Of a stretch of DNA of 64,000 nt, positions 37,355-62,438 are shown in pieces. The position numbers and the translations under genes were made by a program. Below the pieces are notes generated by a model. It was given only the letters and a program-made list of their open reading frames with translations. It did not search any database and was not told the DNA's origin. Location of the stretch: the NCBI GenBank assembly GCA_965208155.1, contig OZ242322.1:2175204-2239203 (forward strand), in the 5' to 3' direction. This DNA comes from Thermodesulfobacteriota bacterium (GTDB taxonomy: Bacteria > Desulfobacterota_D > UBA1144 > Nemesobacterales > Nemesobacteraceae). Positions within the stretch are counted from its first letter, which is position 1. Every line of letters starts with the position of its first letter.

Positions 37355-37357
37355 TTC

Positions 37358-40123: not shown

Positions 40124-40126
40124 ACC

Positions 40127-40780: not shown

Positions 40781-40991
40781 TCAAAGGGATTCCAAAATCA
40801 TTGAGCATCTGTGTCAGCGGATCGTTAAAACCCTTCCAGGGATCAGCAAATCCTCTATGTCCTCCGAGCTCTAACTTGCCAGTGGTCTCTTGATTCTTTG
40901 GAGGGAGATGCTTGTCAAAAAGCTCCCTAAACAGATCTTTTGTTTCTTTTTGACCTTTCGGTTCAAAAGCCTTATTTTTTCTACCCATAGT

Positions 40992-41053
40992 GGCGTATCC
41001 TCCTATTGATTTATTTGGCTGAATTCAAATCAACCGGATACGCCGCTTTTTTT
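40992..41053 (+). terminator. Candidate intrinsic terminator / structured junction after the six-gene operon
   Basis: 9-bp inverted repeat ggcgtatcc ... ggatacgcc (with a nested tgaattca palindrome) followed by gcttttttt. Confidence 0.3.
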
Positions 41054-41088
41054 CAAGTTCTCCATACGCCAGTTTTAACTATATCTCT

Positions 41089-41547
41089 GTGGAAGGGGGC
41101 AAGAGGGTTATGTTCACCCGTACCACGGACCTTGTGCAGAGACTCCAGATGGCCCACAGAGAGCTTCGTATGGAGAGTATGCTTGAGCGACTCAACCGTT
41201 ATGACCTGCTGATTCTCGATGATCTTGCGTACGTACGCAAGGACAGAGACGAAACCAGGGTGCTGTTTGAGCTTATATCGAACCGTTATGAGAGCAGATC
41301 ACTGCTTATCACGGCGAATCAGCCCTTTGAAGAATGGAAAAACGTGTTTCCTGACGAAAATACGGCTGTGGCGGCAGTGGATCGCCTTGTACATCACTGC
41401 GTAATCCTTGAAATGAACGTGGAGAGCTACAGATTGCGTCATGCTATGGAGAAAAACAAGGAGGAGGTGAAGAAAAAACGGGGCAGACCCGCGAAATACG
41501 CTACCGAGAATAACTCGGAGGGTCTGACCTCGAAAACTGGAGATTGA
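41089..41547 (+). pseudogene. IS21-family IstB helper ATPase, C-terminal fragment (no Walker A)
   Basis: Aligns with the IstB C-terminal two-thirds (DLLILDDLAYV...LITANQPFEEW...DRLVHHCVILEMNVESYRL). The N-terminal ~110 aa are missing. Confidence 0.6.
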
Positions 41548-41594
41548 TATCTGTCAGATATGCCGGTATCGTCTCACAATCAGCGACACCCAGA

Positions 41595-41714
41595 GTGTCA
41601 TCTTGATTGTCGCAACAGTGCCATCTTGATTGTCGCGCTACACGTCCGAATTCGCTCGGAATAGGTGTCCGAATTCGCTCGGAATCACTGTCCGAATTCA
41701 GTCGTAATATGCAA
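41595..41714. repeat. Five ~19-bp direct repeats at 23-bp periodicity (two sequence classes) ending in a 27-mer shared with 43671-43697
   Basis: Units start at 41595, 41618, 41644, 41667 and 41690. The first two are gtg(t/c)catcttgattgtcgc. The last three are gtccgaattc(g/a)(c/g)tcg(g/t)aat. Confidence 0.8.
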
Positions 41715-41834
41715 CCAGTCCGCTTGCGATAGCAAGCGTAGATATCTATCTCGAAGAGGAGCAAGAGAACGCGTAGGCACTCTATCTCTCCTTGGGGATA
41801 ATATACTTAACTATCCAAAGATAGTTTTCTGTAG

Positions 41835-42224
41835 TTAATTGAGTTTTATGGCGTTTTTTAATATTGCCTTAGTTGCATTCTTTTGGGTTCTGTGGAAGTA
41901 GTAGGCAAGCCCAGCGAATAGGAAAGAGCATAGGATTGGCAATACAATCTTTTGTTCCCACCATATAATCTGGGTCTCAGGGGACCGCTCAAGAAGGTTC
42001 CAGATATAAGAAAGTCCAAAGAAAAGAAAACCGGTAAATAGGGACCAGCATGTTGTTGAGGCGGTATTGAAAGCATTTAGTTGCTCAAGTTCTATTTCTC
42101 TGACTCCGAACACCTTGTCTTTTCTCCCCCAATAATCGCTCTCAACACGAGCTCCCAGCCTTTCAGAAGGACTCCCTGAATCATTCATTGGACTCCTCCC
42201 TCTCGGACTTGGATATAAGCTCAA
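41835..42224 (-). CDS. Hypothetical small membrane protein (2 predicted TM)
   Basis: 129-aa ORF in AT-rich DNA. Overlaps the upstream small ORF by 44 nt. Confidence 0.3.
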   Translation of the reverse strand: MSLYPSPRGRSPMNDSGSPSERLGARVESDYWGRKDKVFGVREIELEQLNAFNTASTTCWSLFTGFLFFGLSYIWNLLERSPETQIIWWEQKIVLPILCSFLFAGLAYYFHRTQKNATKAILKNAIKLN

Positions 42225-42477
42225 TTCCGTATTTGCTTAAAGCATCGAGTAAAACTAAGGTAGCAGCATAAGATGAGAGATATCCACATGTCAAGCAAAC
42301 GGTCAGAAAAGCCGGATAGTAGACCTTGTCGCTTACGCTTGGAACTTTGATTAGTTCATCCATCAAGGTGTATTTGTCTTTCTTGCATTTTGAGCAAACA
42401 TTGAGTCCGTGCTTGTCAATCCACCTCTTTATCTTTTCTTGGTCCTCTTGCGAGAGTTTTTCCAGCTTTTCAGCCAT
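42181..42477 (-). CDS. Hypothetical small protein with CxxC...CxxC
   Basis: 98 aa (CSKCKK...CLTCGY). First gene of a two-gene minus-strand unit. Confidence 0.3.
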   Translation of the reverse strand: MAEKLEKLSQEDQEKIKRWIDKHGLNVCSKCKKDKYTLMDELIKVPSVSDKVYYPAFLTVCLTCGYLSSYAATLVLLDALSKYGIELISKSEREESNE

Positions 42478-42611
42478 AAAATCTTTCCTCTTGTTTTAAA
42501 TTTGGTTGCGGGGATTATACCCGGCGGACTGGACTTCTTGAGTTTCCGGTGATGCTTCCACTCCCACAATTTTAGCCGGTACAGCCCCGGAAGCAACCTA
42601 AGTCCTTTCTT

Positions 42612-43268
42612 GTGGGGAGGGAATGCGCTGAGAGGGAGAGCAGGAAGCAGCGGCGTCTGGTACGCGACGCTTGCTTCAGACTCAGGGCCGATCTGGTAGA
42701 TATTGACTACGGACATTCCCGTAATCTGAGAAAGGCTCAGATAGCCGAGCTTGCCCATGGAGACTGGGTAGAGCGGGGTCGCAATCTTCTCATAACGGGT
42801 CCTTGCGGAAGCGGCAAGACATGGATAGCTTGCGCTCTGGGTCATAACGCGTGTCTGAAGAGGGATATCGGTTCGTTACTACAGGATCTCAAGACTGTTT
42901 CTGGTTCTCTCCCAGGCAAAGGTGGACGGAAGCTACAACAAGCTTCTCTCAAAACTGGCAAGAGTGAACTTCTTATCGTAGACGACTGGGGTCTTGAGGC
43001 TGTGACCACGGCCCAGAGATATGATCTGATGGAGATAATGGATGACCGTTACGGGGAGAGTTCTACTGTGGTGATAAGTCAGCTTCCGGTAAGCGAGTGG
43101 CATGGCATCATAGGGGACAACACTGTTGCCGACGCGATCCTTGACAGGATCGTTCACAACTCTCATCGTCTTGAGCTCGGTGGGGAGTCGATGAGGAAAA
43201 TCGTTGCGGAGAAGGAAGCGAAACAGGAGTTTGTAAAAGGAAAAGAAGAGAATAGAGATGATTGTTAG
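42612..43268 (+). pseudogene. IS21-family IstB helper ATPase, N-terminally truncated
   Basis: Walker A GPCGSGKT, Walker B LLIVDDWG, and a C-terminal DRIVHNSHRLELGGESMR. Only ~30 residues precede the DIDYGH(=DFDF) region. No istA nearby. Confidence 0.5.
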
Positions 43269-43484
43269 GCTCTGGGGGCATGAGAGAAAACAGAGGTGAT
43301 TTTTAGGAGAAAAAACAGACTTTTTACTCGTCGTTTGACAGGGCAATTCTGAACGTGTTAGAGTCTGTTTTGAAGAAGAAAAAAATGGGGTACACGTGTT
43401 CACTTTCCCTCGGAATTGGTGTTCAAATAAATCGTAATACGCACCGGGCATTGATAATAGCTCCGAATAAAGAAAGGATTTGAA

Positions 43485-43556
43485 ATGAAGCTAGTAAAAA
43501 TAAAGTTAAGTAATTTCAGGTGCTATCAATCAGAGACGGAATTTGTATTAGACTGA
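43485..43556 (+). pseudogene. 23-codon N-terminal stub of another AAA_15/OLD/PtuA-type ATPase
   Basis: MKLVKIKLSNFRCYQSETEFVLD* has the same N-terminal signature as the two PtuA-like genes (MKISKLRLKNIKCF...). It is cut off before Walker A. Confidence 0.3.
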
Positions 43557-43649
43557 ACTTCAAGTAGCAAACCCTATTTCAACCGGAACTTTTTCTCCAC
43601 CGACCTGCTCAATGATGTTTTTGGGAAAAAGGAACCGAGAAGTTCAATC

Positions 43650-43697
43650 GTCCGAATTCGTTTGTAATCGCTGTCCGAATTCAGTCGTAATATGCAA
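43650..43697. repeat. Two 23-bp-periodic repeats. The second (43671-43697) is identical to 41688-41714.
   Basis: gtccgaattcgtttgtaat, then ctgtccgaattcagtcgtaatatgcaa. The 27-mer is identical at both loci and followed by unrelated sequence. Confidence 0.8.
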
Positions 43698-43874
43698 GCT
43701 GGCCATATTTAAACTTGACAATCAGCCATCCTCTAATTCAACACTTAACCATTATGTAATTACCTTTTATAAAAGAAGAAATTTAGTAAAACAATTAAAT
43801 GAAATCATTAATCTAACAATTAGTCGAAATATAAAATTGCAATTAGTCGCAAAAATAATTATATTTGATTCGTC

Positions 43875-45121
43875 ATGCTTGAAGCAGATTGTACGCGACA
43901 CGTTGAATCGCGATTGAGAGAGGTCATTAAGGATTCTCCTGTCGTGTTGATTCAGGGCCCCCGCCAGTGCGGAAAAACTACCCTTGCCCGCATGGTGGCA
44001 GGACCGAGGGCTATCACTACATAAGCCTTGATGAAGAGGATGTTCGTGCCGCCGCCGAGGCGGATATTGCGGGATTTGTAAAGACTTTGCCCAAGCGCGT
44101 AATTCTGGATGAGGTACAGAAAGTGCCGGAGATATTCTCATCCATAAAGCTTGCGGTTGACCGCGACCGTGCTCCAGGGCGTTTTATACTGACAGGTTCG
44201 GTAAGCGTGCTGCATGTTCGCGGGATAACAGATTCTCTTGCCGGTCGCATGGATATAATCAGGTTGCATCCTTTTTCACAAAGTGAAATTGAGGGGAACA
44301 CGCCGGGTTTTCCGGAAGCTCTGTTCTCCTCGGAGTTTGATATATGGCAAAGTGGGAGAGATCTGTCGGAGATAATTGTTATGGATAAACTGGCTGCCGG
44401 CGGATACCCGGTTGCCCTTCAGCGCTCTGCGGAGAGGCGTGCCGACTGGTACAGAAAGTATATAGAGGTGCTCGTGGAGCATGATTCTCGTGACATTGCC
44501 GCAATACGTTCATCCGGGATTCTGTCACAGCTGCTTTCCCTTGCTGCCGCTCAGACCGCGAAGCTTCTTAACGTAACCGGTCTTTCCTCTTCTTTTAAAC
44601 TTAGCCGCAATACGATTCATGACTACCTTCTTCTTCTGGAAAAAATGTTTTTGCTTGAACGGCTGCCCGCGTGGCACTGCAATCACCTCAAGCGTCTGGT
44701 CAAGGCTCCTAAACTTCACGTTACGGATACGGGTGTCGCTTGCGCGCTTATGAGGATGAATAGCGCCGCACTCTCGGCGAACAGGCCTTTTTACGGCCAT
44801 CTTCTTGAGACCTGGGTGCTGCAGGAACTGCGTCGCCAGTTAAGCGGACACGCAGAGCCGCATATCTTCTCTCACTATCGGGAAAAGGATGGGGCGGAAG
44901 TCGATATCGTTATAGAACGCGGGGCAACAGCTCTTGCCGGGGTTGAAGTCAAGGCGTCGGCTACTGTGAGAGGTTCGGATTTTCGGGGATTGCGCAAACT
45001 CAGGGCTGCAGCGGGCGATCGTTTTTCCTGCGGAGTCGTGCTTTATAACGGAGAAAGAAGTCTGCGGTTTGGTGCGGGACTCTATGCGGTGCCTCTGCAG
45101 TCACTCTGGGCGACGGAATAA
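43875..45121 (+). pseudogene. DUF4143-type AAA ATPase, frameshifted
   Basis: The Walker A part (MLEADCTRHVESRLREVIKDSPVVLIQGPRQCGKTTLARMVAGPRAITT*) ends at a stop near 44023. The rest (from GYHYISLDEEDV...) continues in another frame to 45121. Confidence 0.6.
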
Positions 45122-45326
45122 GGCAACTAGGGATAGCAGAACGCTTTTCAATGATATTTTCTGGATGTATATCTGGATTGAAAAGATTCTAAAATCATTA
45201 ATTCAAGCTATTTAGGATCAAATATTTAATGCGTTTTCTATTGATTTTCCCTTGACTTTTATTTTACTCTGAAACCTTGACACTCCACTTTTGATGATTA
45301 GTTTGAGGGATGGAGGTACATGCTAG

Positions 45327-46187
45327 ATGCAAACTGCGGTTGCCACATGCGATTCTCTTTCGGTTTTCATGCGGGAGATGGAAAAACATCCGCTTCTCTC
45401 AAAAGAGCAAGAGTACGCGCTTGCAGTGAGATATTACGAAAACAGGGACCTTGAAGCGGCCAACAAGCTTGTGGTGTCAAACCTCCGGTTTGTTATGAAA
45501 ATCGCTTCTGAATACAGATACTACGGTTTTCCGATGATGGACCTTGTTCAGGAAGGTTCAATAGGACTTATGCGTGCCGTGAAGAAATTCAACCCCTACA
45601 AGGGGTACAGGCTCATATCCTACGCGGTGTGGTGGATCAGGGTAAGGATTCAGAACCACATAATGAAGTTCTGGAGTAACGTGAAGATCGGAACAACGCA
45701 GTCCCAGAGAAAGCTTTTCCAGAGAATAGAGGGGGCAAAACGTAAACTCGGGATAACCGCCACCAGCATGGAAGACGACGACATAAGCCGCCTGGCGGAC
45801 CATTTCGGCGTTAAGGAAGAGGAAATCTCCGAGATGCAGGTCCGCGCTTCCAAAAGAGATCTTTCCCTCTCGGAGCGTCCCGCAGGGGATGACTCCTCGG
45901 CCACTTATGGGGAACTGCTTCCCGACCCGTCGGATAACCAGGAGCAGGTGCTCAGTGAACTCGGGTTTGACAGCCTTGCCAGGAAGAATCTGCGCGAGGC
46001 TCTCGAGATGCTTTCAGAGAGACAGAAAAAGGTAATAAACGAGAGGTATTTCACTGAACCTCCAAGAAAACTCCACGAAATAGCCTGCGATCTCGGGGTT
46101 TCCCAGGAGAGGGTAAGGCAGATACAGGCCGAGTCCATAGGGAAACTCAGGGGACACATGGCCGAAAAACTAGAAATTCACCCGTAA
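45327..46187 (+). CDS. rpoH: RNA polymerase sigma-32 (heat-shock sigma factor)
   Basis: Sigma-70 regions 2-4 plus the RpoH box (QRKLFQ). Directly upstream of dnaK. Confidence 0.8.
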   Translation: MQTAVATCDSLSVFMREMEKHPLLSKEQEYALAVRYYENRDLEAANKLVVSNLRFVMKIASEYRYYGFPMMDLVQEGSIGLMRAVKKFNPYKGYRLISYAVWWIRVRIQNHIMKFWSNVKIGTTQSQRKLFQRIEGAKRKLGITATSMEDDDISRLADHFGVKEEEISEMQVRASKRDLSLSERPAGDDSSATYGELLPDPSDNQEQVLSELGFDSLARKNLREALEMLSERQKKVINERYFTEPPRKLHEIACDLGVSQERVRQIQAESIGKLRGHMAEKLEIHP

Positions 46188-46213
46188 CAAGAAGAAAACT
46201 CAGGAGGAATTAA

Positions 46214-48136
46214 ATGGCTTCTAAGATAATAGGAATAGACCTTGGAACGACTAATTCATGCGTCGCCATCGTTGAGGGCGGTGAACCGAAAGTGATAATC
46301 AACGAGGAAGGCACGAGAACCACCCCTTCGGTGGTCGCGTTTCTAAAGGACGGAGACGAGGTTCTGGTCGGCGGACCGGCAAAGCGCCAGGCCGTGGCCA
46401 ACCCCGAGAACACTGTCTACTCTACAAAAAGACTTATGGGCAGAAGGTTCGAGGAGATATCAAGCGAAGTTGACAGCCTTGCCTACAAGGTAGTGAAATC
46501 AGGCAAATCTGACGCCTGGGTCGAGGTTGAGGGAAAAGAGTATTCTCCCCCGCAGGTCTCAGCGCACGTGCTCACGAAGCTTAAGAAGGCTGCCGAGGAT
46601 TACCTGGGTTCAGAAGTCCAAGAAGCCGTTATCACCGTTCCCGCGTATTTTAACGACAGCCAGCGCCAGGCCACGAAAGACGCCGGAAAGATAGCCGGTC
46701 TTGACGTAAAGCGCATAATAAACGAGCCGACCGCGGCGGCTTTGGCCTACGGGTTTGACAAGAAAAAAGAGGGGATGATAGTGGTCTATGACCTTGGGGG
46801 CGGAACTTTCGACGTATCGGTGCTTGAGGTCGGAAACAACGTCATAGAGGTTAAGTCCACAAACGGGGATACCCACCTCGGCGGGGACGATTTTGACAAG
46901 AGAGTTATTGATTACATCGTTTCCGAGTTCAAGAAAGATTCCGGAATAGACCTCGGGGCGGACAAGATGGCCGTGCAGAGGCTTAGAGAAGCCGCGGAGA
47001 AGGCCAAGATCGAGCTTTCAAACACCGTTGAGACGGAAATAAACCTGCCATTTATAACGGCTGATGCAAGCGGTCCCAAGCACCTGGTGCTTAAGATAAC
47101 GCGCTCCAAGTTTGAGCAGCTCGTCGAGGATCTCGTAAAAGGCACCTTAAAGCCCTGTGAGCAGGCTCTCAGGGATGCGGGGCTTCGCCCGGGCGAGATA
47201 GCCGAGGTAATACTTGTCGGCGGATCGACCAGGATTCCGCTTGTTCAGAAAGTCGTGACTGACTTTTTCGCAAAGGAGCCGAGCAGGGGAATAAACCCCG
47301 ACGAGGTGGTTGCCATGGGGGCTGCCATACAGGCGGGCGTGCTCGGTGGAGACGTAACCGACGTGCTCCTTCTCGACGTGATACCGCTCTCCCTTGGTAT
47401 AGAAACCCTCGGAGGGGTCATGACCACCATTATCGAGAGAAATACGACTATTCCCACCAAGAAAAGCCAGGTCTTCACCACGGCTGAGGACAACCAGAAC
47501 TCGGTTGAGATTCACGTGCTGCAGGGAGAAAGGCAAATGGCAGCCGATAACAGGACGCTTGCCAGATTCATCCTGTCGGGAATTCCCGCGGCGGCAAGAG
47601 GGATTCCACAGATAGAGGTTACTTTCGACACTGACGCCGACGGAATACTCCACGTATCCGCCAAGGATAACGCGACCCAGAAGGAACAGAAAGTGAAGGT
47701 TGAAGCCTCAAGCGGGCTAAGCAGCGACGAGATTGACTCCATGGTCGAGGAAGCCGAGAAGATGTCCGAGAAGGACAAGGAGAAAAGCGAGCAGGTTCAG
47801 AAGAGAAACCAGCTTGATGAACTTGTCTACAGGACCGACAAGAGCTTCCAGGAACTTGGCGACGGCCTCTCTGAGGATGAGAAAAAGGAGCTTGAGCAGG
47901 CCCTTGAGGAAGGAAAGGAAGCACTTAAATCGGATGACTTGGGCAGGATTGACCAGGCTACGGAGAAAATAACCGCTGTTTCCCACAAGCTTGCGGAGCT
48001 TATGTACAAGAAACAGCAGGAAGAGGCTGCTACGCAGGGTGCCGGGGAGGGTGGACAGCAAGACTCTGCGTCCGAGCAGGGAAATTCCACTTCGGGCGAT
48101 GATGTTATAGACGCCGAGTTTACCGAGCAAAAGTAA
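46214..48136 (+). CDS. dnaK: Chaperone DnaK (Hsp70)
   Basis: [22 protein letters not shown] and the full-length Hsp70 layout. Strong RBS AGGAGG. Confidence 0.95.
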
Positions 48137-48156
48137 GCCTCGAATTCAACTCCTCT

Positions 48157-48200
48157 TGTGGTTGCAAAGATGGCTTGATCAAATCATCTTTGCAACCACA
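48157..48200. terminator. Perfect 16-bp-stem hairpin between convergent dnaK and the helicase gene (bidirectional terminator candidate)
   Basis: tgtggttgcaaagatg, loop gcttgatcaaat, then catctttgcaaccaca. The downstream arm is also the left copy of the island-flanking direct repeat. Confidence 0.5.
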
Positions 48201-48205
48201 ATCTA

Positions 48206-51200
48206 CTAAGAAGGTGGTTCTAACGATATCCGCCACGTGTTCAGTACTTGGCACTGATGATTCTCGCTTATCCGGTTAGTCAAGTACTCCAGAAGATCTT
48301 CCTGCCTCGGCTGACCGAAAACAAGACGATAAACAGCAAGCATTCTCTTGAGTCGGCGGAAATGCGGTTCTTCTTTGCTGTAGGGAAGAATCGGTACATG
48401 CCGTTCAATACTCGCGCCTTCCTTAAGTTCGTAAAGCCAATACGGGATTAAATCACTCGCCCCGGTTGGACGGTCTTTCTTTGCTAATTCAAACAGGCAA
48501 GACCATGGGTCGCCTTGCCTGTTCCATTTGCCCCTTAAGGCACTCAATCCATACGCCTTGGCTATGTTTTTTCGAACCGCATGTCCCTTGTATCGTTGGA
48601 TTCGTCCTTCCCTTTGCTCTAAATCAACAGGATTGCTCGGCAGGTTCCAGTGAATTACCGAATGACACCAAGTATGGAAATCCAAGCCTTCCTGCCCAAT
48701 GGACGTCGAGGCGAGAACAAACGGTCTGAACGGTGAGTTAAAAGCATCCCGCACGGCGTCAGCCCTAACGACAGCACCTCTGTCGTCTTTCAGTTCACCA
48801 AACCGCAAAGCAAATCGACACCGCGTGTTATAGTCTTTAAGCTCAATCTTCTGTGACTCCGGACGGACAATCACTTCATCTAGCTGTAACCGAGACGTGC
48901 GTATAGAGAGCGAGGAACCTATTGAATCGCCGATGGTTTCAACCCGTTCGGTCTCTGGCTCGTCAATAACGCCAAGAGACTCGACAAGGCAATGCACTTG
49001 TTCATCCAACAATGACTGGATATTTCCTTCAAGGCAATGCTGAAGCGAAAGCCTCCAGTAAGACTCATCTCGTCTGTTTCCTCGAAGAAGTGCAATGCTT
49101 TCCGGAAGATTAAACAAAGTTCGAAAACCTTCAGAAATCCGAACCGCACCACAAAGAAGTTCCGAAGAGTCCAAATTAAGCGAAGGAGATTGTCGCCGAA
49201 GCGCGCGCAAGGCGCAGACACTTGGCGCCGCCACGGCCATCAGGCTTAGAACCTGGAGAAGGTCCGCCGGGGGTCGTCCAAGTGGTGAATCGATAGCGTG
49301 ATCCATGGTCTGGCGAAAAAGTTCCAAATGTTCTCTCAGTCCTTCCACTCTATCACTCGAGTCCTCTTTTGCTATTGAAAACCACCCTTTTTCATCATCA
49401 AGAAGCCAATGCTTTATGTCGGGAAACCTCTTCCCGTCCAGAAGCGCTGGCGCCGCCCAGTACCATCGCTGATCCTCCGGTCCGCTGGCAGGAGCCTCAA
49501 CAAGCAACTGATTAAGTGACGGTCTGATAAGCTCCGCGGCACTATTGAGCAACTCTGCGGCCGAGATAAGCTTATCCTTCTGGTGAGATACAGCGATGAT
49601 CAAAGGGTCTATCAGCATCGCTAGAGCCGGACTCGGGTACATCAAAATCAGCACGGGCATTCCGGTCGGGCGGTTTTCTGAGCCGCGGGAGTATCGAAGA
49701 AGGGGGCGCAGTTCGTCATAGAGCTGATCGTGGGTAATTGGTTTACGTAAACCGGAAAGCATCTTCCGCTCCGCCTCGTACGAGCAGAGAGAAGCTATGG
49801 CGTCAGGAACAACGTTCCACGCGGAGAAGACCAGAGATTTCGTTATGTCAGGTATATCGGCATAAGAGCCACCGGGTCTGCTGTACGGCATAGAGGGCGG
49901 CAGCCAGAGAATTTTCCAGAGTCCCCGATTTATCGTGAGATCGAACAGGTTTCTCATCCTCGGATTGGACGGTGACACTTCCCGATATGATTGAATGTCA
50001 TCCTTGTGTAAAAGATGGTCTGCGTCTGCCCGCAAAGCCTCAATCAGTTCTTCTGGCGCATTCTCACACTGGGCTTCCAGTTTCTGGCGGAATTCATACC
50101 TCCTCAGAAAGTTTATGAGATAGGGGCTTGATTTCCAGTATTCGATGATGTCGCGCGCGCCGACGCTTGACGCGACCCTGTCGGCCAAAACAGCCCCGTG
50201 AATATCCCGTGGTTCCAACGCTACTTCTTGTGGAAATTCTGAGAACATGGCGTCGCGCGAAGGCGTCATGCCCACTCTTTCCGTACGGCACATCACCCTG
50301 ATGAGTTTTGACTGGAGAACATCACGAGCGTTTGATATAGCCGTATCGTCGTCAGATCCGAGAGAATAAAGAGACTGCCTGAATGCTTGGATGTCCCTTT
50401 TGATGCCGTCTATAACCGTCTGGGGATCAACCGACTCGGAATGAGAGAGAAATCCCAATGTCTTCAGAAAGTCTGGGTAATGGTCATCATCCCGTTCATG
50501 GTCAAGAGAAAGCATCTTGTACGGAGTGGCCGACAAAAGCAGCGTTTTGACATTCTCGTATTGAAACAGCTTGTGAGCCAGCCGGTTTTTGTGGTTTTGA
50601 GAGTCTTCTTGATTTTTGGGATCCAGCAGGCTCCTAAACCTCTGAAACTCATCGAGTATGATAAGATCCGGCTCAAGCATATCAATGCTCATCTCGGCAA
50701 GGCGAAACCGCAATTCCGAAACAAGCCAGAGCCGTTCAGGGTCACCCCAAAGAATCCGCCTTCTGGATCGCGCGCAGAAATTCTTAATTTTCTCGTAAAA
50801 CTCCCGGTCCTCGCTTACATTCTTTACGAACTCGTCACGGATATCCTTATCAAGGCTTTCAGGTTTCCATTTGCGTGTCCACCACCACCAGTTTTCATCA
50901 CTCACGCGGCACTGGAGCAGCCGCCTTAAGCCCGCGGGGCTAATATTCAGCCTGCCTTTCAGCAGAAAGTGTATCAGCGCTCGCTCTTTAACCTTTCCAT
51001 CTCTCGATCTGGGATCGAAGCTTGTTCCCGGCGTGAGGCTCACGTAATTTACGCGGTTCTTTCGAATATCGGAGATATCTATTGGGAGAAGGGAAAGACG
51101 TGTAGATCTTTCGAATTTCTGTTCTCCCGAAACATTAAGTCGACGGAGGTTTTGAGACGCGATGCTCATATTCGAGCAGACATAGACAATATCGATCCGA

Positions 51201-51412
51201 CCGACCTTCTTGGCGAGCAAGTGCTCAGTCGCAAGGGCGATAACGCCGCCGGCCACGAGGGTTTTTCCGAGTCCAACCTCATCCGCTACGAGAAAACGAT
51301 CCGTAGTTTCAGGATCTGTATAGAAACGGCGAAACACATATTCGGCGGTCCGCCGCTGAAAGTCCTTAAGTCTTCCGAGGACAAGCTTCGTTTTATGTGA
51401 TTTTCCCGTCAC
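48206..51412 (-). CDS. SNF2-like superfamily-2 helicase (1068 aa)
   Basis: N-terminal motif I DEVGLGKT, DExx box LILDEFQ, and C-terminal motifs V/VI (ASTSIGQEGLDFHTWCHSVIHWNLPSNPVDLEQREGRIQR). Confidence 0.7.
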   Translation of the reverse strand: MTGKSHKTKLVLGRLKDFQRRTAEYVFRRFYTDPETTDRFLVADEVGLGKTLVAGGVIALATEHLLAKKVGRIDIVYVCSNMSIASQNLRRLNVSGEQKFERSTRLSLLPIDISDIRKNRVNYVSLTPGTSFDPRSRDGKVKERALIHFLLKGRLNISPAGLRRLLQCRVSDENWWWWTRKWKPESLDKDIRDEFVKNVSEDREFYEKIKNFCARSRRRILWGDPERLWLVSELRFRLAEMSIDMLEPDLIILDEFQRFRSLLDPKNQEDSQNHKNRLAHKLFQYENVKTLLLSATPYKMLSLDHERDDDHYPDFLKTLGFLSHSESVDPQTVIDGIKRDIQAFRQSLYSLGSDDDTAISNARDVLQSKLIRVMCRTERVGMTPSRDAMFSEFPQEVALEPRDIHGAVLADRVASSVGARDIIEYWKSSPYLINFLRRYEFRQKLEAQCENAPEELIEALRADADHLLHKDDIQSYREVSPSNPRMRNLFDLTINRGLWKILWLPPSMPYSRPGGSYADIPDITKSLVFSAWNVVPDAIASLCSYEAERKMLSGLRKPITHDQLYDELRPLLRYSRGSENRPTGMPVLILMYPSPALAMLIDPLIIAVSHQKDKLISAAELLNSAAELIRPSLNQLLVEAPASGPEDQRWYWAAPALLDGKRFPDIKHWLLDDEKGWFSIAKEDSSDRVEGLREHLELFRQTMDHAIDSPLGRPPADLLQVLSLMAVAAPSVCALRALRRQSPSLNLDSSELLCGAVRISEGFRTLFNLPESIALLRGNRRDESYWRLSLQHCLEGNIQSLLDEQVHCLVESLGVIDEPETERVETIGDSIGSSLSIRTSRLQLDEVIVRPESQKIELKDYNTRCRFALRFGELKDDRGAVVRADAVRDAFNSPFRPFVLASTSIGQEGLDFHTWCHSVIHWNLPSNPVDLEQREGRIQRYKGHAVRKNIAKAYGLSALRGKWNRQGDPWSCLFELAKKDRPTGASDLIPYWLYELKEGASIERHVPILPYSKEEPHFRRLKRMLAVYRLVFGQPRQEDLLEYLTNRISENHQCQVLNTWRISLEPPS

Positions 51413-53223
51413 TTGCCAGCCTCCTCCATGGCGGTTTCAAAGACTTCCCATAATCTCAGGAATTCCGGAGGAACAGAAGACGGTTTTGTCTGGTCGCTCG
51501 TAAGGCGCTTCACAACGGATTTCACCTCTTTTAGCTTATCGGGACCGCGGCTGAAAGCCCTTACGAGTTCCTCGAGTATCGCGGTATCCCCCAAGAAGTC
51601 ATCTGCAAGGGGACCGGTGGTTCCCTTCCTGCTGAAAATATCTCTGCCGCTAAAAAAACCGCCCGCGTATTCACTGAGCAGTAAAAGAACGTAACGGAGA
51701 AAACCCTCTTTGTTTTTCAAAACAAGTCTGAAAATTGCATCATCCCGGTTCTCCGGAAAACCGGTCACCGGAAGGTTAAGCACTATCCGCAAAGATATCT
51801 TCTTGTTGATTCCAGCCACGAATTCAAAGGCGATAAGTCCTGTAACGGATTCTGTGGCGAACCTCTCTAACTCAACAACCTGAGAGCTATTAAACCCGTA
51901 CGCATCTGACGCCCGATCCTCTGATACGGTAATTGGCCAGGCTTTTAGCTGGGATACCCCCGAAAGCACAATTTGCTTAGAGGAGACAAGCGTAAGTCGC
52001 CAAGCATCTGCGTCTGCTTCGCAGACGACCTTTAATTCTGCTGCGACCAACAAGTCTCTTGCCCCTTCAAGCGCTTTTCGCGCACGAGCTTCCTCATTTC
52101 CTGGCGTAGGAGGTTCCTGTGGAACATAGTCTGAGAGAACCGGACCGAGACCCTCTTCGCCTAAAAGAGTTTCAATATCCCCGACGCGGCTTTTTCTTCC
52201 GACAAGTTCCACCAGTATCTCGGTATTGCTTCGCTTTATAAGAGCTGCAGTTGTGGCGTTGGCTGAACCAATATAGAGCCTTGTTCGAAAGCCCTTTTCA
52301 ACCACGTACGCCTTAGCATGAAGACCAAAGGTATCCCGATTGTCCAACTCCTCACCGTCTTCAGTTTCTGCGGCTTCATCAAGTGTGAACCGCTTCCCAG
52401 ATAATTCCAAAGTATCGGGTGCAAGTCGGTTGAATTCTTCAGGTCTGGAGATAATGGTAACCAGATTTTCTGTTTGCTTACTTAGCCATAAAAGAGCAGC
52501 GTCAGTTACAAATGGGGAGATAACAGCCATCTGTCTTGATCGTGGCGGCACCCACTGCTTTCTGGGTGTTCCCATGATATGAAAAGACACCTCCTCGAAT
52601 TCACCGGGCAGTTCCCATACAGTTTTCCTGACTTCTTCCGCAAGTTTTTCGGCCCGCAATTTCGCTGATTCCGATACCTTCTGAGTGGCAATTGACGGTA
52701 AGGATCGCAGAAATTCACCCAATGGCCGATTAGCGGCGATAAATCGTCTGCTCGGTCGTCCATCGAGTTGAAGTGAGATGTCCCATGAGCGGTCATACGT
52801 GATGTTTCGCGACAGGACAAGGAGTCTTATCAAAGGAGGCTCATCAAGCTCAGGCTGAATGAAACGAAGCACCCATATTTTGGGATGGAATACCCCTCCT
52901 CTCGGTGCTTCGACCTGCTCGATCATGGGTTCGAGCAAACCGTAAAGTACTTTGTTTTCAGAGGGAATCTTTATTCCGTTACGATCCACGTAAACACTTA
53001 AACGGCCCGAGAGTCGACGGAGGGATTCAAGAAGCCTTATCGGATCAACCTGATCCGCAGATGGGCCCTGCCCTAAAGCGAGATGCACCGACAGTAAAAG
53101 CAGCGTGTCCGGATCAAGGGAGTAGGTGGTCGCTATCGCCTGGTCAAAAATGTATCCCGGTGGCGGGGTAACGGCCTCCGTGTAAAGGCTTCTGGAGTCA
53201 GGGCTTAGCACCATTTCCTCCAT
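51409..53223 (-). CDS. Phospholipase-D-family nuclease with two HKD motifs
   Basis: HPKIWVLRF near the N-terminus. A central HAKAYVVE...GSANAT (HxK...GSxN). Overlaps the helicase start by 4 nt. Confidence 0.7.
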   Translation of the reverse strand: MEEMVLSPDSRSLYTEAVTPPPGYIFDQAIATTYSLDPDTLLLLSVHLALGQGPSADQVDPIRLLESLRRLSGRLSVYVDRNGIKIPSENKVLYGLLEPMIEQVEAPRGGVFHPKIWVLRFIQPELDEPPLIRLLVLSRNITYDRSWDISLQLDGRPSRRFIAANRPLGEFLRSLPSIATQKVSESAKLRAEKLAEEVRKTVWELPGEFEEVSFHIMGTPRKQWVPPRSRQMAVISPFVTDAALLWLSKQTENLVTIISRPEEFNRLAPDTLELSGKRFTLDEAAETEDGEELDNRDTFGLHAKAYVVEKGFRTRLYIGSANATTAALIKRSNTEILVELVGRKSRVGDIETLLGEEGLGPVLSDYVPQEPPTPGNEEARARKALEGARDLLVAAELKVVCEADADAWRLTLVSSKQIVLSGVSQLKAWPITVSEDRASDAYGFNSSQVVELERFATESVTGLIAFEFVAGINKKISLRIVLNLPVTGFPENRDDAIFRLVLKNKEGFLRYVLLLLSEYAGGFFSGRDIFSRKGTTGPLADDFLGDTAILEELVRAFSRGPDKLKEVKSVVKRLTSDQTKPSSVPPEFLRLWEVFETAMEEAGK

Positions 53224-54415
53224 TTAAGCCCGCGTGGAGATCCGAGAGCAGTGTTTTAACGTTACCCCAGCGGTATTCCATCTGCCTGACTCCTGAATTT
53301 CCTCTCCACTGGTCAAGTGCCCTTTCATTCACAAAGCGGGAACGAACGTTTTTAAGGCGCCGTTCGCGGTTTTCGACAAGCATCCTGCTCTCAGGATCAT
53401 CGGCGACATCACCCTGAGTTTTCAAGACGCGACGACACCAGGCTGAGACAAAATTCATCGCCTGCGAGGTTATAGTATGTCCCTGACCAGAAGTAAGTTC
53501 CCAGAGTCCTCCAAGCGGAAGACCTATGTGCTGGCAGTTTTGCAGATCAACCTTCCACTTATCAAGATTGCCCCGATGCTTATCTTTGAGTTCCCCACGG
53601 TCCGAAAGCTCCGCCAGCATAAGATTATAAAGAAAAGCGGCGCCATGCATTATTACAGAGAAAAACTCCGCGTAGTCCAGCAAGTCCTTTTGGACAGCGG
53701 AAAAGTTATCCCTGTCCGGATGTTCCCACGGAAACTCGCAATCAACAGGCTCGCACTTCTGTGCCAAATGGGTGAGCAAACTCTCTTTATGAGATTCCAA
53801 GAGACGGTCAAGCAAGAAGCTTGCCTCCTCATATTCCAAAGTGAAACTCAAGTTCTGGATGTCATAGGGGAAATTGCTTGGCGGTTCAGGCAGGCGTGGA
53901 TGCCATATACTAGCCTCTGAAAAACCATTTTTCCCTTCTCCACCACTGGCAGAGATCTCAATCCGCTTGTACAGTTTGTCCACGTGGCTTTGATATTCAT
54001 CCTGCGAACACTCGATCCGACGAATGCCCCACACCCCAAGACCGTTCCAGTAGACTGAGCTTGGCAGTCGCTTCACTGCTTTCCCTGCTACTTTTCCGAA
54101 AACACCTGCATGATCAGAACTTTCCAGAAGGGGACCGATCAAAGTCGTCTCCATTTGGCGGGCTTTTATAGCGAAAACTGGTGGGAGCACGCGTTTTTTT
54201 TCGAGTTCTCTATAAACCCAGGGAACAAAAACCATGTACCGAAGACGGGTCTGGATCGTGCTCGTACCGGGAAATAGCCTGTCCGCAAACGAATCCCTGA
54301 TAGCACCCAGTCCAAGTTCCTCTCGACTATCTCTCTCTTGGAAAAGCGCCAAGATGCGAAGAGTCCGCTCCCTAGCGACCGGGTCGTGGTCTATCCATGT
54401 CAATGTGGACGGCAT
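53198..54415 (-). CDS. Hypothetical 405-aa protein, first gene of the PLD/helicase operon
   Basis: Long ORF that overlaps the PLD gene by 26 nt. No family recognised by eye. Confidence 0.4.
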   Translation of the reverse strand: MPSTLTWIDHDPVARERTLRILALFQERDSREELGLGAIRDSFADRLFPGTSTIQTRLRYMVFVPWVYRELEKKRVLPPVFAIKARQMETTLIGPLLESSDHAGVFGKVAGKAVKRLPSSVYWNGLGVWGIRRIECSQDEYQSHVDKLYKRIEISASGGEGKNGFSEASIWHPRLPEPPSNFPYDIQNLSFTLEYEEASFLLDRLLESHKESLLTHLAQKCEPVDCEFPWEHPDRDNFSAVQKDLLDYAEFFSVIMHGAAFLYNLMLAELSDRGELKDKHRGNLDKWKVDLQNCQHIGLPLGGLWELTSGQGHTITSQAMNFVSAWCRRVLKTQGDVADDPESRMLVENRERRLKNVRSRFVNERALDQWRGNSGVRQMEYRWGNVKTLLSDLHAGLNGGNGAKP

Positions 54416-54728
54416 TTCCTCAATCCTCCGTTCTATCCCCTTTCACCATTGTTATTGGGTATAAGCAAAAAAAGCTTTAGGAAAAAGGAATAAAAATGCT
54501 TAGAAAAGAAATTTGAGGTGTCGCCTGGTCACCTCTGGAATATGCGAGGAGGGCTGCCTCCATCTCCTACGGAACTTTTGGGGTCCAGGATTCCTCTCAA
54601 CAATCGCGACAGTATATTTTGCCGCATACTCTTAATAGTGGAATTTACCGAATGATTAACAGGAATCAATAGAAATTGTCCCAGTTTGCCACTCTTAGTA
54701 TAAGAAAAGTGATCAAACCACCTTTGTC

Positions 54729-54756
54729 GTTTGATCAAACCATTTTTGCAACCATA
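54729..54756. repeat. Right copy of the 28-bp imperfect direct repeat (24/28 identical to 48173-48200)
   Basis: gtttgatcaaaccatttttgcaaccata versus gcttgatcaaatcatctttgcaaccaca. Confidence 0.6.
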
Positions 54757-54962
54757 CTTGGGCTTCCTCGAAATAGTTTCTCGGCAGTAGTGATATTTTC
54801 CCCTCTGCGGTTAAAATGATTTTCCGAATCCGGGCTTCCGCTTTAGGTCCAAAGCACCGTTTTGAGCGTCTGAGGCCGGATTTTCGATAGCAAGAACAGC
54901 GTGGTTGCTCCATGTTGAAAATTTTCCCCGCGGCCCCGCTTCGCCGCGTTTTGTATGGATAC

Positions 54963-57632
54963 ATGGAAGAAGATCCTCAAATATCGGAAGAAGAAGCAGA
55001 AGATCGGGAATGGATCGAATCGCTTGAATACGTGATCGAGAATTCCGGCCGCGAGAGAGCAAGCGACCTGCTTCGGAAGCTCAGAATATACTCCCAGAAA
55101 AAAGGCGTTAAGATCCCCTACGCCGCAAATACCCCTTACGTAAACACCATTTCCCTCGAGGACCAGCCCCTATACCCCGGCAACTACGAAATAGAGCGCA
55201 ACATAAGAAGCATAATAAGGTGGAACGCCATGGCCCTGGTCGTGCGCGCAAACAGGATAAGTGACGGAATCGGCGGACACATTTCCACCTATGCATCAGC
55301 CGCCACGCTCTACGAGATAGGTTTCCACCATTTTTTCAGGGCCGGCGGCGAGAACAGGGAAGGGGACATAATCTACTTCCAGGGCCACGCTTCGCCGGGC
55401 ATATACGCAAGGGCGTTTCTCGAAGGCTCGGTATCTATCGAGCAGATGCGGAATTTCAGAAGGGAGATTGGCGGAGACGGTCTTTCTTCCTACCCCCATC
55501 CCTGGCTCATGCCGGACTTCTGGGAGTTCCCGACGGTCTCAATGGGGCTCTCCCCCATAATGGCGATTTATCAGGCCCGTTTTAACAGGTACCTCGAGGA
55601 CAGGGGCCTCAAGCCCAGGACCGACGCCAAGGTGTGGGCCTTTATAGGGGACGGGGAAACGGACGAGCCCGAAACCCTGGGGGCCATCACCCTTGCGTCA
55701 AGGGAGAAACTCGACAACCTCATATTCGTGATCAACTGCAACCTCCAGCGCCTAGACGGCCCCGTGAGGGGAAACGGCAAGATAATACAGGAGCTTGAGA
55801 GAATCTTCAGGGGGGCCGGGTGGAACGTGATAAAGGTTGTCTGGGGAGGAACTTGGGATCCGATCCTGGCGCAGGATAAAGACGGCTTCCTGGTAGAGAG
55901 GATGGAGGCGGCCCTTGACGGCGATTACCAGAGGTACACCATATCTCCGGGGAAGTACATAAGGGAGCATTTTTTCGGCACCCGCCCGGAAATCTTCGAG
56001 ATGGTCGAGGGGCACTCAGACGAGCAGCTTGAGAAACTCGCAAGAGGAGGCCACGATTCAGAGAAGGTCTATGCCGCCTACAAGGCCGCGGTTGAGAACA
56101 CCGGTTCTCCCACCGTGATTCTCGCAAAGACCATAAAGGGCTACGGCCTCGGGGAGGCGGGGGAGGGCAAGAACATAACCCACCAGCAGAAAAAGTTAAA
56201 CGAAGAGGAGCTAAAGCGTTTCAGGACCCGATTCTACATACCGATTACGGACAAGGAGATCAGAAGAGCTCCCTTCTACAGACCCGCTCCCGACAGCCCC
56301 GAGATGAAATATCTCCGCGAGAGAAGGGAGACCCTAGGCGGACCCATCCCCAAGCGGGTCGTGCGCGCCAAGCCCCTTGAAAAGATTCCGGAGAAAGTGT
56401 TTGAGGATTTCAAAAAGCCCTCGGGTTCCAAGAGAAAAGTGGCAACTACCATGGTAATCGTCCACATGCTCTCAAGACTCATGCGGGACAAGGATATAGG
56501 AGATCTGATAGTCCCAATAGTTCCTGACGAGGCTAGAACTTTCGGGATGGAGGCGCTTTTCAGGCAGGTGGGCATCTACTCAAGCGTGGGACAACTCTAC
56601 GAACCGGTCGACGCGGACACCCTCCTTTACTACAAGGAGGCAAAGGACGGACAGATCCTTGAAGAAGGCATAACCGAGGCGGGCAGCATGTCTTCCTTCA
56701 TCGCAGCCGGCACTGCCTACTCGACCCACGGCATAAACACCATCCCGTTTTTCATTTACTACTCCATGTTCGGGTTTCAGAGGATAGGGGACCTTATCTG
56801 GGCCGCCGCCGACATGAAATGCAGGGGCTTCATGGTGGGGGGCACCGCGGGGCGGACCACCCTTGCGGGCGAGGGTCTTCAGCACCAGGACGGAAACAGC
56901 CATCATTTCGCCTACGCGTATCCCAACCTGCGGGCCTACGACCCGGCTTTTTCCTACGAGATAGCGGTGATAGTCAGGGACGGGATAAAAAGGATGTACC
57001 AGGATGGGGAGGAGATATTTTACTACATAACGGTGATGAACGAGCGCTACGTGCAGCCCGCAATGCCTGAGGGGGTCGAGGAAGGTATAATAAGAGGGAT
57101 GTACAGGTTCGCCCCTTCGCAGATCGAGGACTCGGGGAAAAAGGTCCATCTTTTCGGAAGCGGGGCGATCATGAACGAGATTCTCTGGGCAAAAGAGGTC
57201 CTTGAGAGCGGCTACGGCGTTCCGACCGACGTCTGGAGCGTAACGAGCTACAAGGCGCTTTACGATGACGCAAAGGAGACAGAGAGGTGGAACCGCCTCA
57301 ATCCCGGGGAGAAGAGAAGAAAAAACTACATTTCGGAGTGCATGGAAGGGGAAGACGGGGTATTTATTGCCGCGACTGATTACTTAAAAAGCCTTCCCGA
57401 TTCCGTTTCCGCCCACTTCCCCAAACCTCTTGTTTCCCTGGGAACTGACGGGTTCGGAAGAAGCGACACTCGCGAGGCGCTTCGCGACTTTTTCGAGGTC
57501 GACTACCGCCACATCGCGATCGCGGCCCTTTACGAGCTTTACAGGGAAGGCAGGATCGATGAGAAAACCGTCAATGAGGCGATAAGCGAATTTGGAATTG
57601 ACCGGGGAAAGCCAAGCCCCTCGGTCTCGTGA
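54963..57632 (+). CDS. aceE: Pyruvate dehydrogenase E1 component, homodimeric type
   Basis: Aligns end to end with E. coli AceE (YPGNYEIERNIRSIIRWNAMA..., ThDP-binding region). Start chosen at the internal MEEDPQ by that alignment. Confidence 0.9.
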   Translation: MEEDPQISEEEAEDREWIESLEYVIENSGRERASDLLRKLRIYSQKKGVKIPYAANTPYVNTISLEDQPLYPGNYEIERNIRSIIRWNAMALVVRANRISDGIGGHISTYASAATLYEIGFHHFFRAGGENREGDIIYFQGHASPGIYARAFLEGSVSIEQMRNFRREIGGDGLSSYPHPWLMPDFWEFPTVSMGLSPIMAIYQARFNRYLEDRGLKPRTDAKVWAFIGDGETDEPETLGAITLASREKLDNLIFVINCNLQRLDGPVRGNGKIIQELERIFRGAGWNVIKVVWGGTWDPILAQDKDGFLVERMEAALDGDYQRYTISPGKYIREHFFGTRPEIFEMVEGHSDEQLEKLARGGHDSEKVYAAYKAAVENTGSPTVILAKTIKGYGLGEAGEGKNITHQQKKLNEEELKRFRTRFYIPITDKEIRRAPFYRPAPDSPEMKYLRERRETLGGPIPKRVVRAKPLEKIPEKVFEDFKKPSGSKRKVATTMVIVHMLSRLMRDKDIGDLIVPIVPDEARTFGMEALFRQVGIYSSVGQLYEPVDADTLLYYKEAKDGQILEEGITEAGSMSSFIAAGTAYSTHGINTIPFFIYYSMFGFQRIGDLIWAAADMKCRGFMVGGTAGRTTLAGEGLQHQDGNSHHFAYAYPNLRAYDPAFSYEIAVIVRDGIKRMYQDGEEIFYYITVMNERYVQPAMPEGVEEGIIRGMYRFAPSQIEDSGKKVHLFGSGAIMNEILWAKEVLESGYGVPTDVWSVTSYKALYDDAKETERWNRLNPGEKRRKNYISECMEGEDGVFIAATDYLKSLPDSVSAHFPKPLVSLGTDGFGRSDTREALRDFFEVDYRHIAIAALYELYREGRIDEKTVNEAISEFGIDRGKPSPSVS

Positions 57633-60402: not shown

Positions 60403-60555
60403 CGGAGTAAAATCTGGAGCGTGGTCTAAGTCGACCAAAGGAGAAGAGGTTCCTTCTTTGTTGCAGCACTTGGAGAAGTGTGGTTTGATTCGGTATCTTG
60501 AGGGAAGAGAGATTGCTCTTACCGTAAATGGATACTCTCATACTGGAGAGAACTG

Positions 60556-61272
60556 ATGGGTTCATCTAAAAAAAAGCTTTTTCTCATACCCTGCTGCTCA
60601 ACTAAGTATTGTGGTGGAGATTCCTGGGCTCCCACGCCGGAACCGCTGACAGCTCTAGTTTCGGAGAAGACTTACTCCGCTATTTTGGAAACCAGAAGGC
60701 AGGTGCTGTCGGATATTCTCCAAGACAAGAAATACACCTCCAAAGAATACGAAAAAAACGGAAGTTTGGAACCGGGGTCGGATTTCGGCGGACAGAGCGC
60801 ATCGGGACTATACCTTCCAGCAGTGCAAAGATATAAAGGGACTCTGTACTCAAAAACCCCCACTCTCTCATCACGTAGCAACTGGGACGACCAGATTCTC
60901 ATCCTGTCGGCACTCTACGGGCCGCTGCACCCCCTCAGTCGCGTTCAGGATTACAATCTTCAGATGAGCGATAGGCCCGCTTACAAAACATGGAAAAAAC
61001 GCCTTCCCCAGTTTCTTCGAAACTATGCCCTTTTAAACGACATTCAGGAGATTCATCTCTTTTTCGGCAGTAGCACACACTATCTGAAAGTGGCTAAAGC
61101 CGCTGTGGAACCCCTGTTGAAAGAGAAACTGATTAAAAAAGCGGTTCAGTATCACGTCATTGACGGCAATACGAGGCTGACGCCGCAGACGCACGGCGAA
61201 CTGTTGGAAAACTGTCTGAAACGAGGAAACATAAATAAACTTCCCAAGAACATTAAGGAGCGTACCTTATGA
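60556..61272 (+). CDS. YaaA/DUF328-like protein (divergent)
   Basis: By-eye alignment to E. coli YaaA: LFLIPCCSTK ~ LILISPAKTL, AVQRYKGTLY ~ AFKGDVYTGL, SALYGPLHPLSRVQDYNLQM ~ [20 protein letters not shown]. Confidence 0.45.
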   Translation: MGSSKKKLFLIPCCSTKYCGGDSWAPTPEPLTALVSEKTYSAILETRRQVLSDILQDKKYTSKEYEKNGSLEPGSDFGGQSASGLYLPAVQRYKGTLYSKTPTLSSRSNWDDQILILSALYGPLHPLSRVQDYNLQMSDRPAYKTWKKRLPQFLRNYALLNDIQEIHLFFGSSTHYLKVAKAAVEPLLKEKLIKKAVQYHVIDGNTRLTPQTHGELLENCLKRGNINKLPKNIKERTL

Positions 61273-61898
61273 GTGACGCATGCCGATTTATACATGATCT
61301 TGCGGGGCATTTCGACAGGCATGAATTTCCTTTCGAACCTGAACTGATTCCTGAAAGCGGAATCTATCTGCTTTTCGAGGCGGGGGAAACCGCCCACGGA
61401 ACCGAGCGAATCGTTCATGTCGGAACGCATACGGGAAATCGGCGGCTCATGTCAAGGCTTCAGGAACACGACAGTTCCAACAAGGACCGGAGCATATTAA
61501 GAAAGAATGTTGGCCGAGCGCTTTTGCGCAAAAGCGGGGACCCCTTTCTGGAGAAATGGAATATTGATCTCACCTCAAGGGAAAAGAGAGAGAAATACGA
61601 GCCGCTCGTTGACTTCGAACGACAAGGTGACGTCGAGGCTGCGGTGACGGACAGAATTCGGCGAAATTTTTCCTTTGTCGCATTGCCCGTGGAAGACAAG
61701 AAATCACGGTCCGAGCTTAAACTGAAGATTATATCCACCTTGTCTCTTTGCGGTTGCTGTCGGCCGTCAGAGCAATGGCTGGGCCTGTGGTCTTCCAAGA
61801 GCAAAATTCGAGAAAGCGGACTTTGGCTTGAACAAGGGCTGTACAAGGAACCGCTGTCAGCGGATGAAATCAGCGCATTGCGGGCAATCGCGTCGTGA
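61269..61898 (+). CDS. GIY-YIG nuclease-domain protein
   Basis: GIYLLFEAGETAHGTERIVHVGTHTGNRRLMSRLQEH fits GIY-(10-12)-YVG-...-R..H. Overlaps the YaaA-like gene by 4 nt. Confidence 0.5.
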   Translation: MSDACRFIHDLAGHFDRHEFPFEPELIPESGIYLLFEAGETAHGTERIVHVGTHTGNRRLMSRLQEHDSSNKDRSILRKNVGRALLRKSGDPFLEKWNIDLTSREKREKYEPLVDFERQGDVEAAVTDRIRRNFSFVALPVEDKKSRSELKLKIISTLSLCGCCRPSEQWLGLWSSKSKIRESGLWLEQGLYKEPLSADEISALRAIAS

Positions 61899-62201
61899 AT
61901 GACTCGTGGCGGTGTTCCTCCCCGTTAAATCAAGAGCACTATTTGCTAACCGGATTCATGAAGAAATCCCTCCTCCTAAACTTTCAAGATGTTGCAACAA
62001 GGATCAAGTACAGAACACAGGAATATCTAATCTCGCAAGTGAGAATGACAGGATAATGGGAAGAAAACCAAAAATCATCCCACATATTCCGGGAACGCTT
62101 GAGCAGATAACCGACGCTATCTTCGCGAAGGATAAGGTTGTTAAGAAAAGAAAAACTAAACCGGCGAGTAAAAATACTAGAAACAAAAAAGGTCTGCATC
62201 T

Positions 62202-62435: not shown

Positions 62436-62438
62436 TGT

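Follow-up and report, generated by a model that had tools for sequence, protein, structure and literature searches.

What occupies the gap between dnaK and aceE in the genome of an uncultured bacterium, and how is it bounded? The question is raised by a 64,000-nt stretch of contig OZ242322.1 (the window, to which all positions refer unless another contig is named), in which three overlapping minus-strand open reading frames (ORFs) are flanked by dnaK (HSP70) on one side and by aceE, encoding E1 of the pyruvate dehydrogenase in an aceE-aceF-lpd operon, on the other, with imperfect direct repeats around them. A first-pass annotation had described a defence operon of a phospholipase D (PLD) nuclease, a superfamily 2 (SF2) helicase and a third protein, had taken these for split parts of SauUSI- or Mokosh-like systems in a new order, and had read the repeats as the footprint of a site-specific or target-duplicating insertion. 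The domain content is borne out by PADLOC and Pfam profile matches, and the other two proposals give way to a different picture: very probably, the locus holds an Azaca (ZacABC) system on a ~6.6-kb cassette whose end sites are the repeats, placed in a hotspot beside dnaK.

The operon starts with zacA (53198-54415, minus strand), which encodes 405 aa from an ATG with GGAGG 9 nt upstream. It is followed by zacB (51409-53223, minus strand, 604 aa, ATG start), overlapping zacA by 26 nt, and zacC (48206-51412, minus strand, 1068 aa), whose GTG start overlaps the zacB stop by 4 nt; coordinates and overlaps agree with those first annotated. The 405-aa protein matches the PADLOC ZacA profile with residues 1-398 aligned to profile positions 1-395 of 396 (E 1.1e-129), as well as Pfam DUF6361 (PF19888; E 4.5e-68, 230.5 bits against a cut-off of 25). 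The 604-aa PLD-family nuclease matches ZacB over its full length (E 1.1e-170), with a weak match to Pfam PLDc_2 at residues 300-343, and the 1068-aa SF2 helicase/ATPase, in which Pfam finds DEAD and Helicase_C domains, matches ZacC with 1128.7 bits (E 0; residues 9-1066, profile positions 7-1016 of 1019). Every sequence-testable feature of the family (ZacA, ZacB, ZacC and their order) is present. Because of the full-length matches to all three profiles together with DUF6361, the three genes are, as judged from their sequences, a complete Azaca system and not a new SauUSI/Mokosh-like split.

Two HxK motifs are present in ZacB, H113-P-K115 and H302-A-K304, of which the second is directly followed by GSANAT, and all four H and K residues are invariant across 6 homologues, one of them from a Cronobacter plasmid (46% identity). 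The earlier description as a two-HKD protein thus stands for the two HxK motifs and fails for the canonical Asp of HxKx4D, which is absent from both. Read from the translation, ZacC contains motif I (DEVGLGKT, 44-51, with the Walker A residues GLGKT at 47-51), motif II (DEFQ, 254-257), motif III (SAT at 294) and motif VI (QREGRIQR at ~933). Sequence searches of the PDB with all three components returned no solved relative, and nothing useful for ZacB and ZacC. An AlphaFold2 model of ZacA is all-alpha (pLDDT 81.8) and has no informative structural neighbour among PDB structures.

Azaca, a defence system that has been validated, is attributed to Millman et al. 2022 (PMC10952713). Homologues of ZacA are common, with 2549 protein-search matches, 48 plasmids (21 of them from Cronobacter) and one phage record, and the protein is ~46-50% identical to the enterobacterial plasmid copies. 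Its closest relatives, like those of DnaK, come from Candidatus Dadabacteria, where the operon occurs at no fewer than five different loci. The adjacent, co-oriented A-B-C order is shared by two other Azaca loci (L095 and L100), by the TARA contig L104 and by the Cronobacter plasmid, and the genes overlap in the Dadabacteria relatives and on the plasmid too. In Cronobacter dublinensis, the IncFIB plasmid pA14-1 encodes this DUF6361-PLD-helicase triad with a gene for a tyrosine recombinase immediately upstream of it (5933-13189).

What the system may do can be read from its Bacillus homologue, which protects more than 10^6-fold against T4 and, in vitro, preferentially degrades T4 double-stranded DNA (dsDNA). 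The system depends on each of the three proteins, on the nuclease active site and on the Walker A motif of ZacC, mutation of conserved ZacA residues has no effect, and glucosyl-hydroxymethylcytosine has been proposed by the authors as a possible cue (bioRxiv 10.1101/2025.07.10.664194). By analogy, ZacA, ZacB and ZacC would jointly form an ATP-dependent nuclease that degrades invading phage dsDNA, with hyper-modified, T4-like DNA containing glucosyl-hydroxymethylcytosine as the preferred substrate. The first-pass suggestion of modified-DNA targeting agrees with these family data, which were published since. The proposal that the 405-aa protein is the recognition module found no support, its predicted all-alpha structure containing no recognisable reader fold.

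The limits of the mobile segment were obtained by comparison with relatives. The closest genome found is OZ242379, a 2.28-Mb chromosome assembled from a metagenome. In four relatives (L091-L094), homology to the window covers only a block of a sigma-factor gene and dnaK (~45212-48136) and ends at the dnaK stop codon (48134-48136). In OZ242379, dnaK and aceE are neighbours as well, but a different island of ~10 kb lies between them, and homology resumes at 54783. From these two points it follows that the variable segment is 48137-54782, delimited by the conserved dnaK block and by the conserved region upstream of aceE, and that both repeats lie inside it; the expectation of an insertion relative to relatives is supported. 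The sigma-dnaK block of the relatives is bordered on both sides by variable defence islands, which contain a type IIS restriction-modification system, Mrr, GmrSD and AAA_15/DUF3696 genes, as well as Kiwa, type II CBASS, a Metallophos + HATPase pair and a KAP NTPase.

The two 28-mers (48173-48200 and 54729-54756) are indeed 24/28 identical, and a search for a 24-nt core pattern, allowing 3 mismatches at most, matches three times in the window and in none of 100 shuffles. The true repeat unit, however, is a 26-nt site composed of an arm, TGTGGTTGCAAARATGG, and TTTGATCAA, of which the window has three copies and a degenerate fourth half-copy. Next to dnaK, 20 nt past its stop codon, an inverted copy (48157-48182, plus strand) forms the 5' arm of a 46-bp palindrome; it is missing 3' of dnaK in L091-L094. 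Overlapping it is the cassette 3' end site (48175-48200, minus strand; TGTGGTTGCAAAGATGA + TTTGATCAA), which corresponds to the left repeat and is the 3' arm of the hairpin. Upstream of zacA, the 5' boundary (54709-54730, minus strand) consists of a degenerate arm (GACAAAGGTGG) and the core TTTGATCA(C), and beyond it stands an outer copy (54731-54756, minus strand; TATGGTTGCAAAAATGG + TTTGATCAA) that holds the right repeat. Read from zacA to zacC, the cassette starts at the core TTTGATCA(C), continues with a leader of ~310 nt and ends in the arm TGTGGTTGCAAAGATGR and the same core. A 7-nt direct repeat, CCTCGAA, at 48138-48144 and 54766-54772 lies 12 and 9 nt outside the outer site copies; since it does not adjoin the ends, it is probably due to chance.

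The hairpin itself is confirmed: the left 28-mer supplies the 3' arm of a stem of 17 perfectly paired bp, whose DNA folding energy is -18.3 kcal/mol (z = -7.8). Its interpretation as the dnaK terminator finds no support: it is missing after dnaK in the four relatives, has no T-run and travels with the cassette into L095, and no terminator was called there by a terminator scan. It may still stop transcription. The strong hairpin is found in the window only (1 of 4 cassette 3' ends), and an Rfam scan of 47900-55100 gave no match at E up to 1.

The argument for a cassette rests on its presence elsewhere. The same Azaca cassette occurs at ~91% nucleotide identity in two further contexts, L095/L096 and L097. 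In the former it has the opposite orientation and different neighbours, standing downstream of dnaK after an AAA_13 gene and a HipA module; in the latter it lies upstream of the sigma gene. Homology to the window spans 48157-54723 in L095 and 48176-54717 in L097, so that it ends within the repeat motif on both sides: at the 3' end it extends through the inverted copy in L095 and stops within the core in L097. Beyond the 3' core, the window has an inverted arm completing the palindrome, L095 a degenerate inverted arm, and L097 the start of a second, small cassette with a perfect arm at its end. In addition, L097 contains an element of the IS110 family of insertion sequences (12260-13813; transposase 12355-13434, minus strand) exactly between the perfect arm TGTGGTTGCAAAAATGG and the expected core, which suggests that the end site is a specific target of insertion sequences. 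In all five aligned 5' junctions TTTGATC is invariant.

Other cargo is framed in the same manner. In L084, which like L089 is a metagenome contig from a related organism, a double site, ~75 nt of the same leader and a direct site copy downstream enclose a DUF4268 gene that matches the PADLOC candidate PDC-S11 (E 4e-168). The outer double site is also found upstream of other cargo genes in both L084 and L089, and is missing from L095 and L097. A relaxed search with the 26-mer found copies at cassette borders only, with 1 match in 1.34 Mb of unrelated loci. For the motif, a scan of viral contigs gave 0 matches and a scan of metagenomes 10 contigs, 8 of these being the same unrelated locus, whose lone copy is probably due to chance.

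The leader (54416-54708, minus strand) is non-coding. It is ~91% identical in L095 and L097, with insertions and deletions that are not multiples of three, and it contains a 28-nt block (TTGATTCCTGTTAATCATTCGGTAAATT, 54642-54669) that is conserved at 28/28 positions in the three Azaca cassettes and at 26/28 in the unrelated PDC-S11 cassette of L084, with 0 matches in the 1.34 Mb of control loci. We infer that the block could be a promoter (TTGATT, 16 nt, TAAATT). The promoter scan left it uncalled at 8/12 against a threshold of 9/12 and found no minus-strand promoter upstream of zacA; its sole promoter-like call is on the plus strand at 54790-54817, in the conserved aceE upstream region. Within the leader, at 54500-54545 (minus strand), a small conserved hairpin (GAGGTGACCAGGCGACACCTC) is followed by a nearly invariant AT-rich stretch, with no Rfam match.

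Several other histories have been considered for the repeats. The insertion of the operon between dnaK and aceE by an integrase or transposase, with duplication of a target or att site, is suggested by direct repeats that bracket the operon at 24/28 identity and by the fact that the operon is the sole minus-strand block from ~10 to 62 kb of the window (~50 kb). This account is very improbable: both copies belong to the segment that relatives lack, and a near-identical 26-mer flanks other cargo in L084 and occurs in L089 and L097, whereas a duplicated target would vary from site to site. No integrase was found among the scanned ORFs of the window, and a scan of it for tRNA genes found none, hence no tRNA integration site. 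Because both copies lie within the variable segment and the same sequence bounds cassettes at other loci, the repeats are, by the sequence comparisons, element-borne cassette end sites and not a duplicated target. It is likewise improbable, though somewhat less so, that the unit 48157-54756 is a non-autonomous transposon mobilised in trans, with 26-bp terminal inverted repeats starting TGTGG/TATGG and internal repeats spaced by 22 nt, as in Tn7 or Mu-type ends. The inverted copies at 48157-48182 and 54731-54756 are 23/26 identical, the tandem 22-nt spacing is present at the right end, and the L095 homology stops exactly at the outer TGTGG terminus at 48157. There is no target-site duplication, the flanks reading CCTCT and CTTGG; moreover, L084 has direct copies only, the outer copy of the 5' end is missing in L095 and L097, and no transposase is present.

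The IS110 family targets repeated palindromes, and its member in L097, inserted exactly between arm and core, fits a further account, in which the site is an intergenic palindrome of the lineage resembling repetitive extragenic palindromes (REP) or REPINs. Such elements would be found behind genes singly or as inverted or tandem doublets, and would mark the borders only as hotspots of recombination or of insertion. The window does have a hairpin-forming inverted doublet and a tandem doublet, and site copies follow dnaK and an ABC ATPase gene at 15-20 nt from the stop codon. We regard this account as unlikely, though a serious rival to a dedicated cassette-exchange system. Against it stand the lack in the 64-kb window of site loci other than the two at the Azaca borders, the absence of sites from the related genome L001 and from L091-L094, and the ~110 nt of adjoining leader common to cassettes with different cargo, which a short REP leaves unexplained. 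Finally, the helicase and the PLD protein could have been housekeeping enzymes (RapA-like and cardiolipin-synthase-like) kept beside dnaK, a possibility to which practically no credence can be given. A local similarity to RapA exists, weak and confined to 50 residues of the ZacC helicase C domain, and the NCBIfam RapA model scores 36.4 bits against a cut-off of 576; the synteny comparison refutes the idea, the operon being missing next to dnaK in L091-L094 and scattered over at least five loci in Dadabacteria.

In the favoured reading, that of an Azaca cassette bounded by its own sites, the operon, its leader and the end sites would form a unit from 48157/48176 to 54717/54723, placed in the genome of a Candidatus Dadabacteria member, at a defence-island hotspot adjoining its conserved sigma-dnaK block. 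The 28-bp repeats would be copies of the end site, arm plus core, and exchange between genomes would have taken place at the core or beside it, leaving the breakpoints that the comparisons show. Several observations weigh against this reading. The tested Bacillus system is distantly related to the Dadabacteria proteins, whose substrate preference may differ. No recombinase or transposase was found in the cassette or among the scanned ORFs of the 64-kb window, apart from IstB fragments. More diverged Dadabacteria Azaca systems (72-75% ZacA identity) are situated at lepB-pyrR and lpd-rpsT without sites, and a counterpart of the L084 cargo, a DUF4268 gene of 89% identity, occurs elsewhere without the frame. 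The junctions are not uniform either: they form a palindrome in the window, are degenerate in L095 and take the form of an arm-core-leader junction in L097. Simple inversion, single-crossover and one-site models were compared with the junction sequences, and each fails for some of them.

A broader proposal is tentative. The 26-nt site and the shared leader could belong to an undescribed cassette-exchange system of Dadabacteria, in which promoter-bearing defence cassettes swap between hotspots in either orientation by recombination at the palindromic TGATCA core, with a recombinase encoded elsewhere; it would be integron-like in function, with other sites and rules. Its cargo may comprise Azaca, PDC-S11/DUF4268, a small Zn-ribbon-like ORF and possibly HipA. 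The end site with the shared leader might be the only new element here, as the operon itself belongs to a known family. A literature search on Dadabacteria with integrons or defence found nothing on such cassettes.

Further variable regions are present in the window and in related genomes. A second island (33981-45212), upstream of the sigma-dnaK block, contains two Septu-like PtuA+PtuB pairs (34191-36200 and 38768-40780), a PDC-S01 candidate (AAA_14/DUF4143, 43967-45121) and IstB/IS21 fragments (41089-41547 and 42612-43268), with an ornithine-decarboxylase-like gene and a DUF3326 gene in between. The interval 60409-62812, with a YaaA/DUF6884-like gene (60556-61272) and a 209-aa ORF, is missing from L001. 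In the same gap between lpd and rpsT/holA, L104 has a 410-aa gene and an Azaca operon with 75% ZacA identity, and the gap looks like a further hotspot. A HipA + HTH_3 toxin-antitoxin module (7115-8615) is 88% identical to the module at 8185-9690 of L095, which lies 6 nt from the Azaca cassette; the boundary of the window module is at TTTGATC (7117-7123), resembling the cassette core. Near the start of the window (392-1933, minus strand), a gene encodes a 513-aa protein without a family match. Its 82%-identical homologue (19408-20850 of L092) lies inside the dnaK-aceE island of OZ242379, which therefore points to a rearrangement of ~53 kb or to gene movement between genomes. Where the window has an Endonuclease I gene (19385-20284, within 19355-20350), L084 has instead, at 112-1764, an AT-rich stretch and the framed PDC-S11 cassette. 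The latter contig also has a gene for 1287 aa (4384-8247) inserted within an oligopeptide ABC transporter operon, and a HigA-like ORF.

Taken alone, a Dadabacteria member is an ordinary addition to a defence family that is only now being characterised biochemically. The comparisons add that these small, largely sponge- and ocean-associated genomes concentrate defence genes around the sigma-dnaK block, and that at least some of these genes appear to move in cassettes framed by an end site that recurs. If this end site is a true recombination site, it would offer a handle on the assembly of defence islands in an uncultured phylum and a sequence tag for finding new cargo genes.

Among known systems, DISARM (DrmA/B/C/D/E and a methyltransferase) likewise combines a PLD protein with a SNF2-like helicase. 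The similarity is confined to local matches, in which ZacB aligns with DrmC (E 6e-4) and the C-terminal domain of ZacC with DrmD (E 3e-16), and the NCBIfam DrmD model scores 59 bits against a cut-off of 610; the three-gene segment contains no DrmA and, as had been noted at the outset, no DUF1998 protein (DrmB) and no methyltransferase, all of which belong to the required set. The matches of ZacABC to DrmC/DrmD, DpdE, BrxH and RapA are all local and far below curated cut-offs. Mokosh and SauUSI-type systems also couple PLD nuclease chemistry to a helicase ATPase, and the preference of SauUSI for modified DNA is apparently shared by the Azaca family. In contrast, they are one- or two-protein systems with PLD and helicase fused or otherwise ordered and with no ZacA counterpart. 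The PADLOC PLD_Helicase match is marginal (E 9e-6), and the NCBIfam model phospholipD_antiphage (NF042964) for SauUSI-like single-chain enzymes, which unite PLD, helicase and target-recognition domains in one polypeptide and whose functions are here split over three proteins, reaches 37.5 bits against a cut-off of 1100. Integron cassettes (attC), including those of defence-carrying chromosomal integrons, resemble the present cassette in a recurring, part-palindromic 3' site that frames cargo, in the tandem pair of L097 and in breakpoints within the site. They differ in that the Azaca cassettes have their own leader, occur in both orientations and form a strong hairpin at 1 of 4 3' ends; no RYYYAAC/GTTRRRY core pair was seen by eye in the 46-bp site, and no integrase among the scanned window ORFs. 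The described Azaca systems share with the present one the gene order of DUF6361 protein, PLD nuclease and SF2 helicase. What sets this member apart, its activity being predicted by homology, is its host, an uncultured Dadabacteria lineage, and the carriage of the operon in a cassette with conserved end sites.

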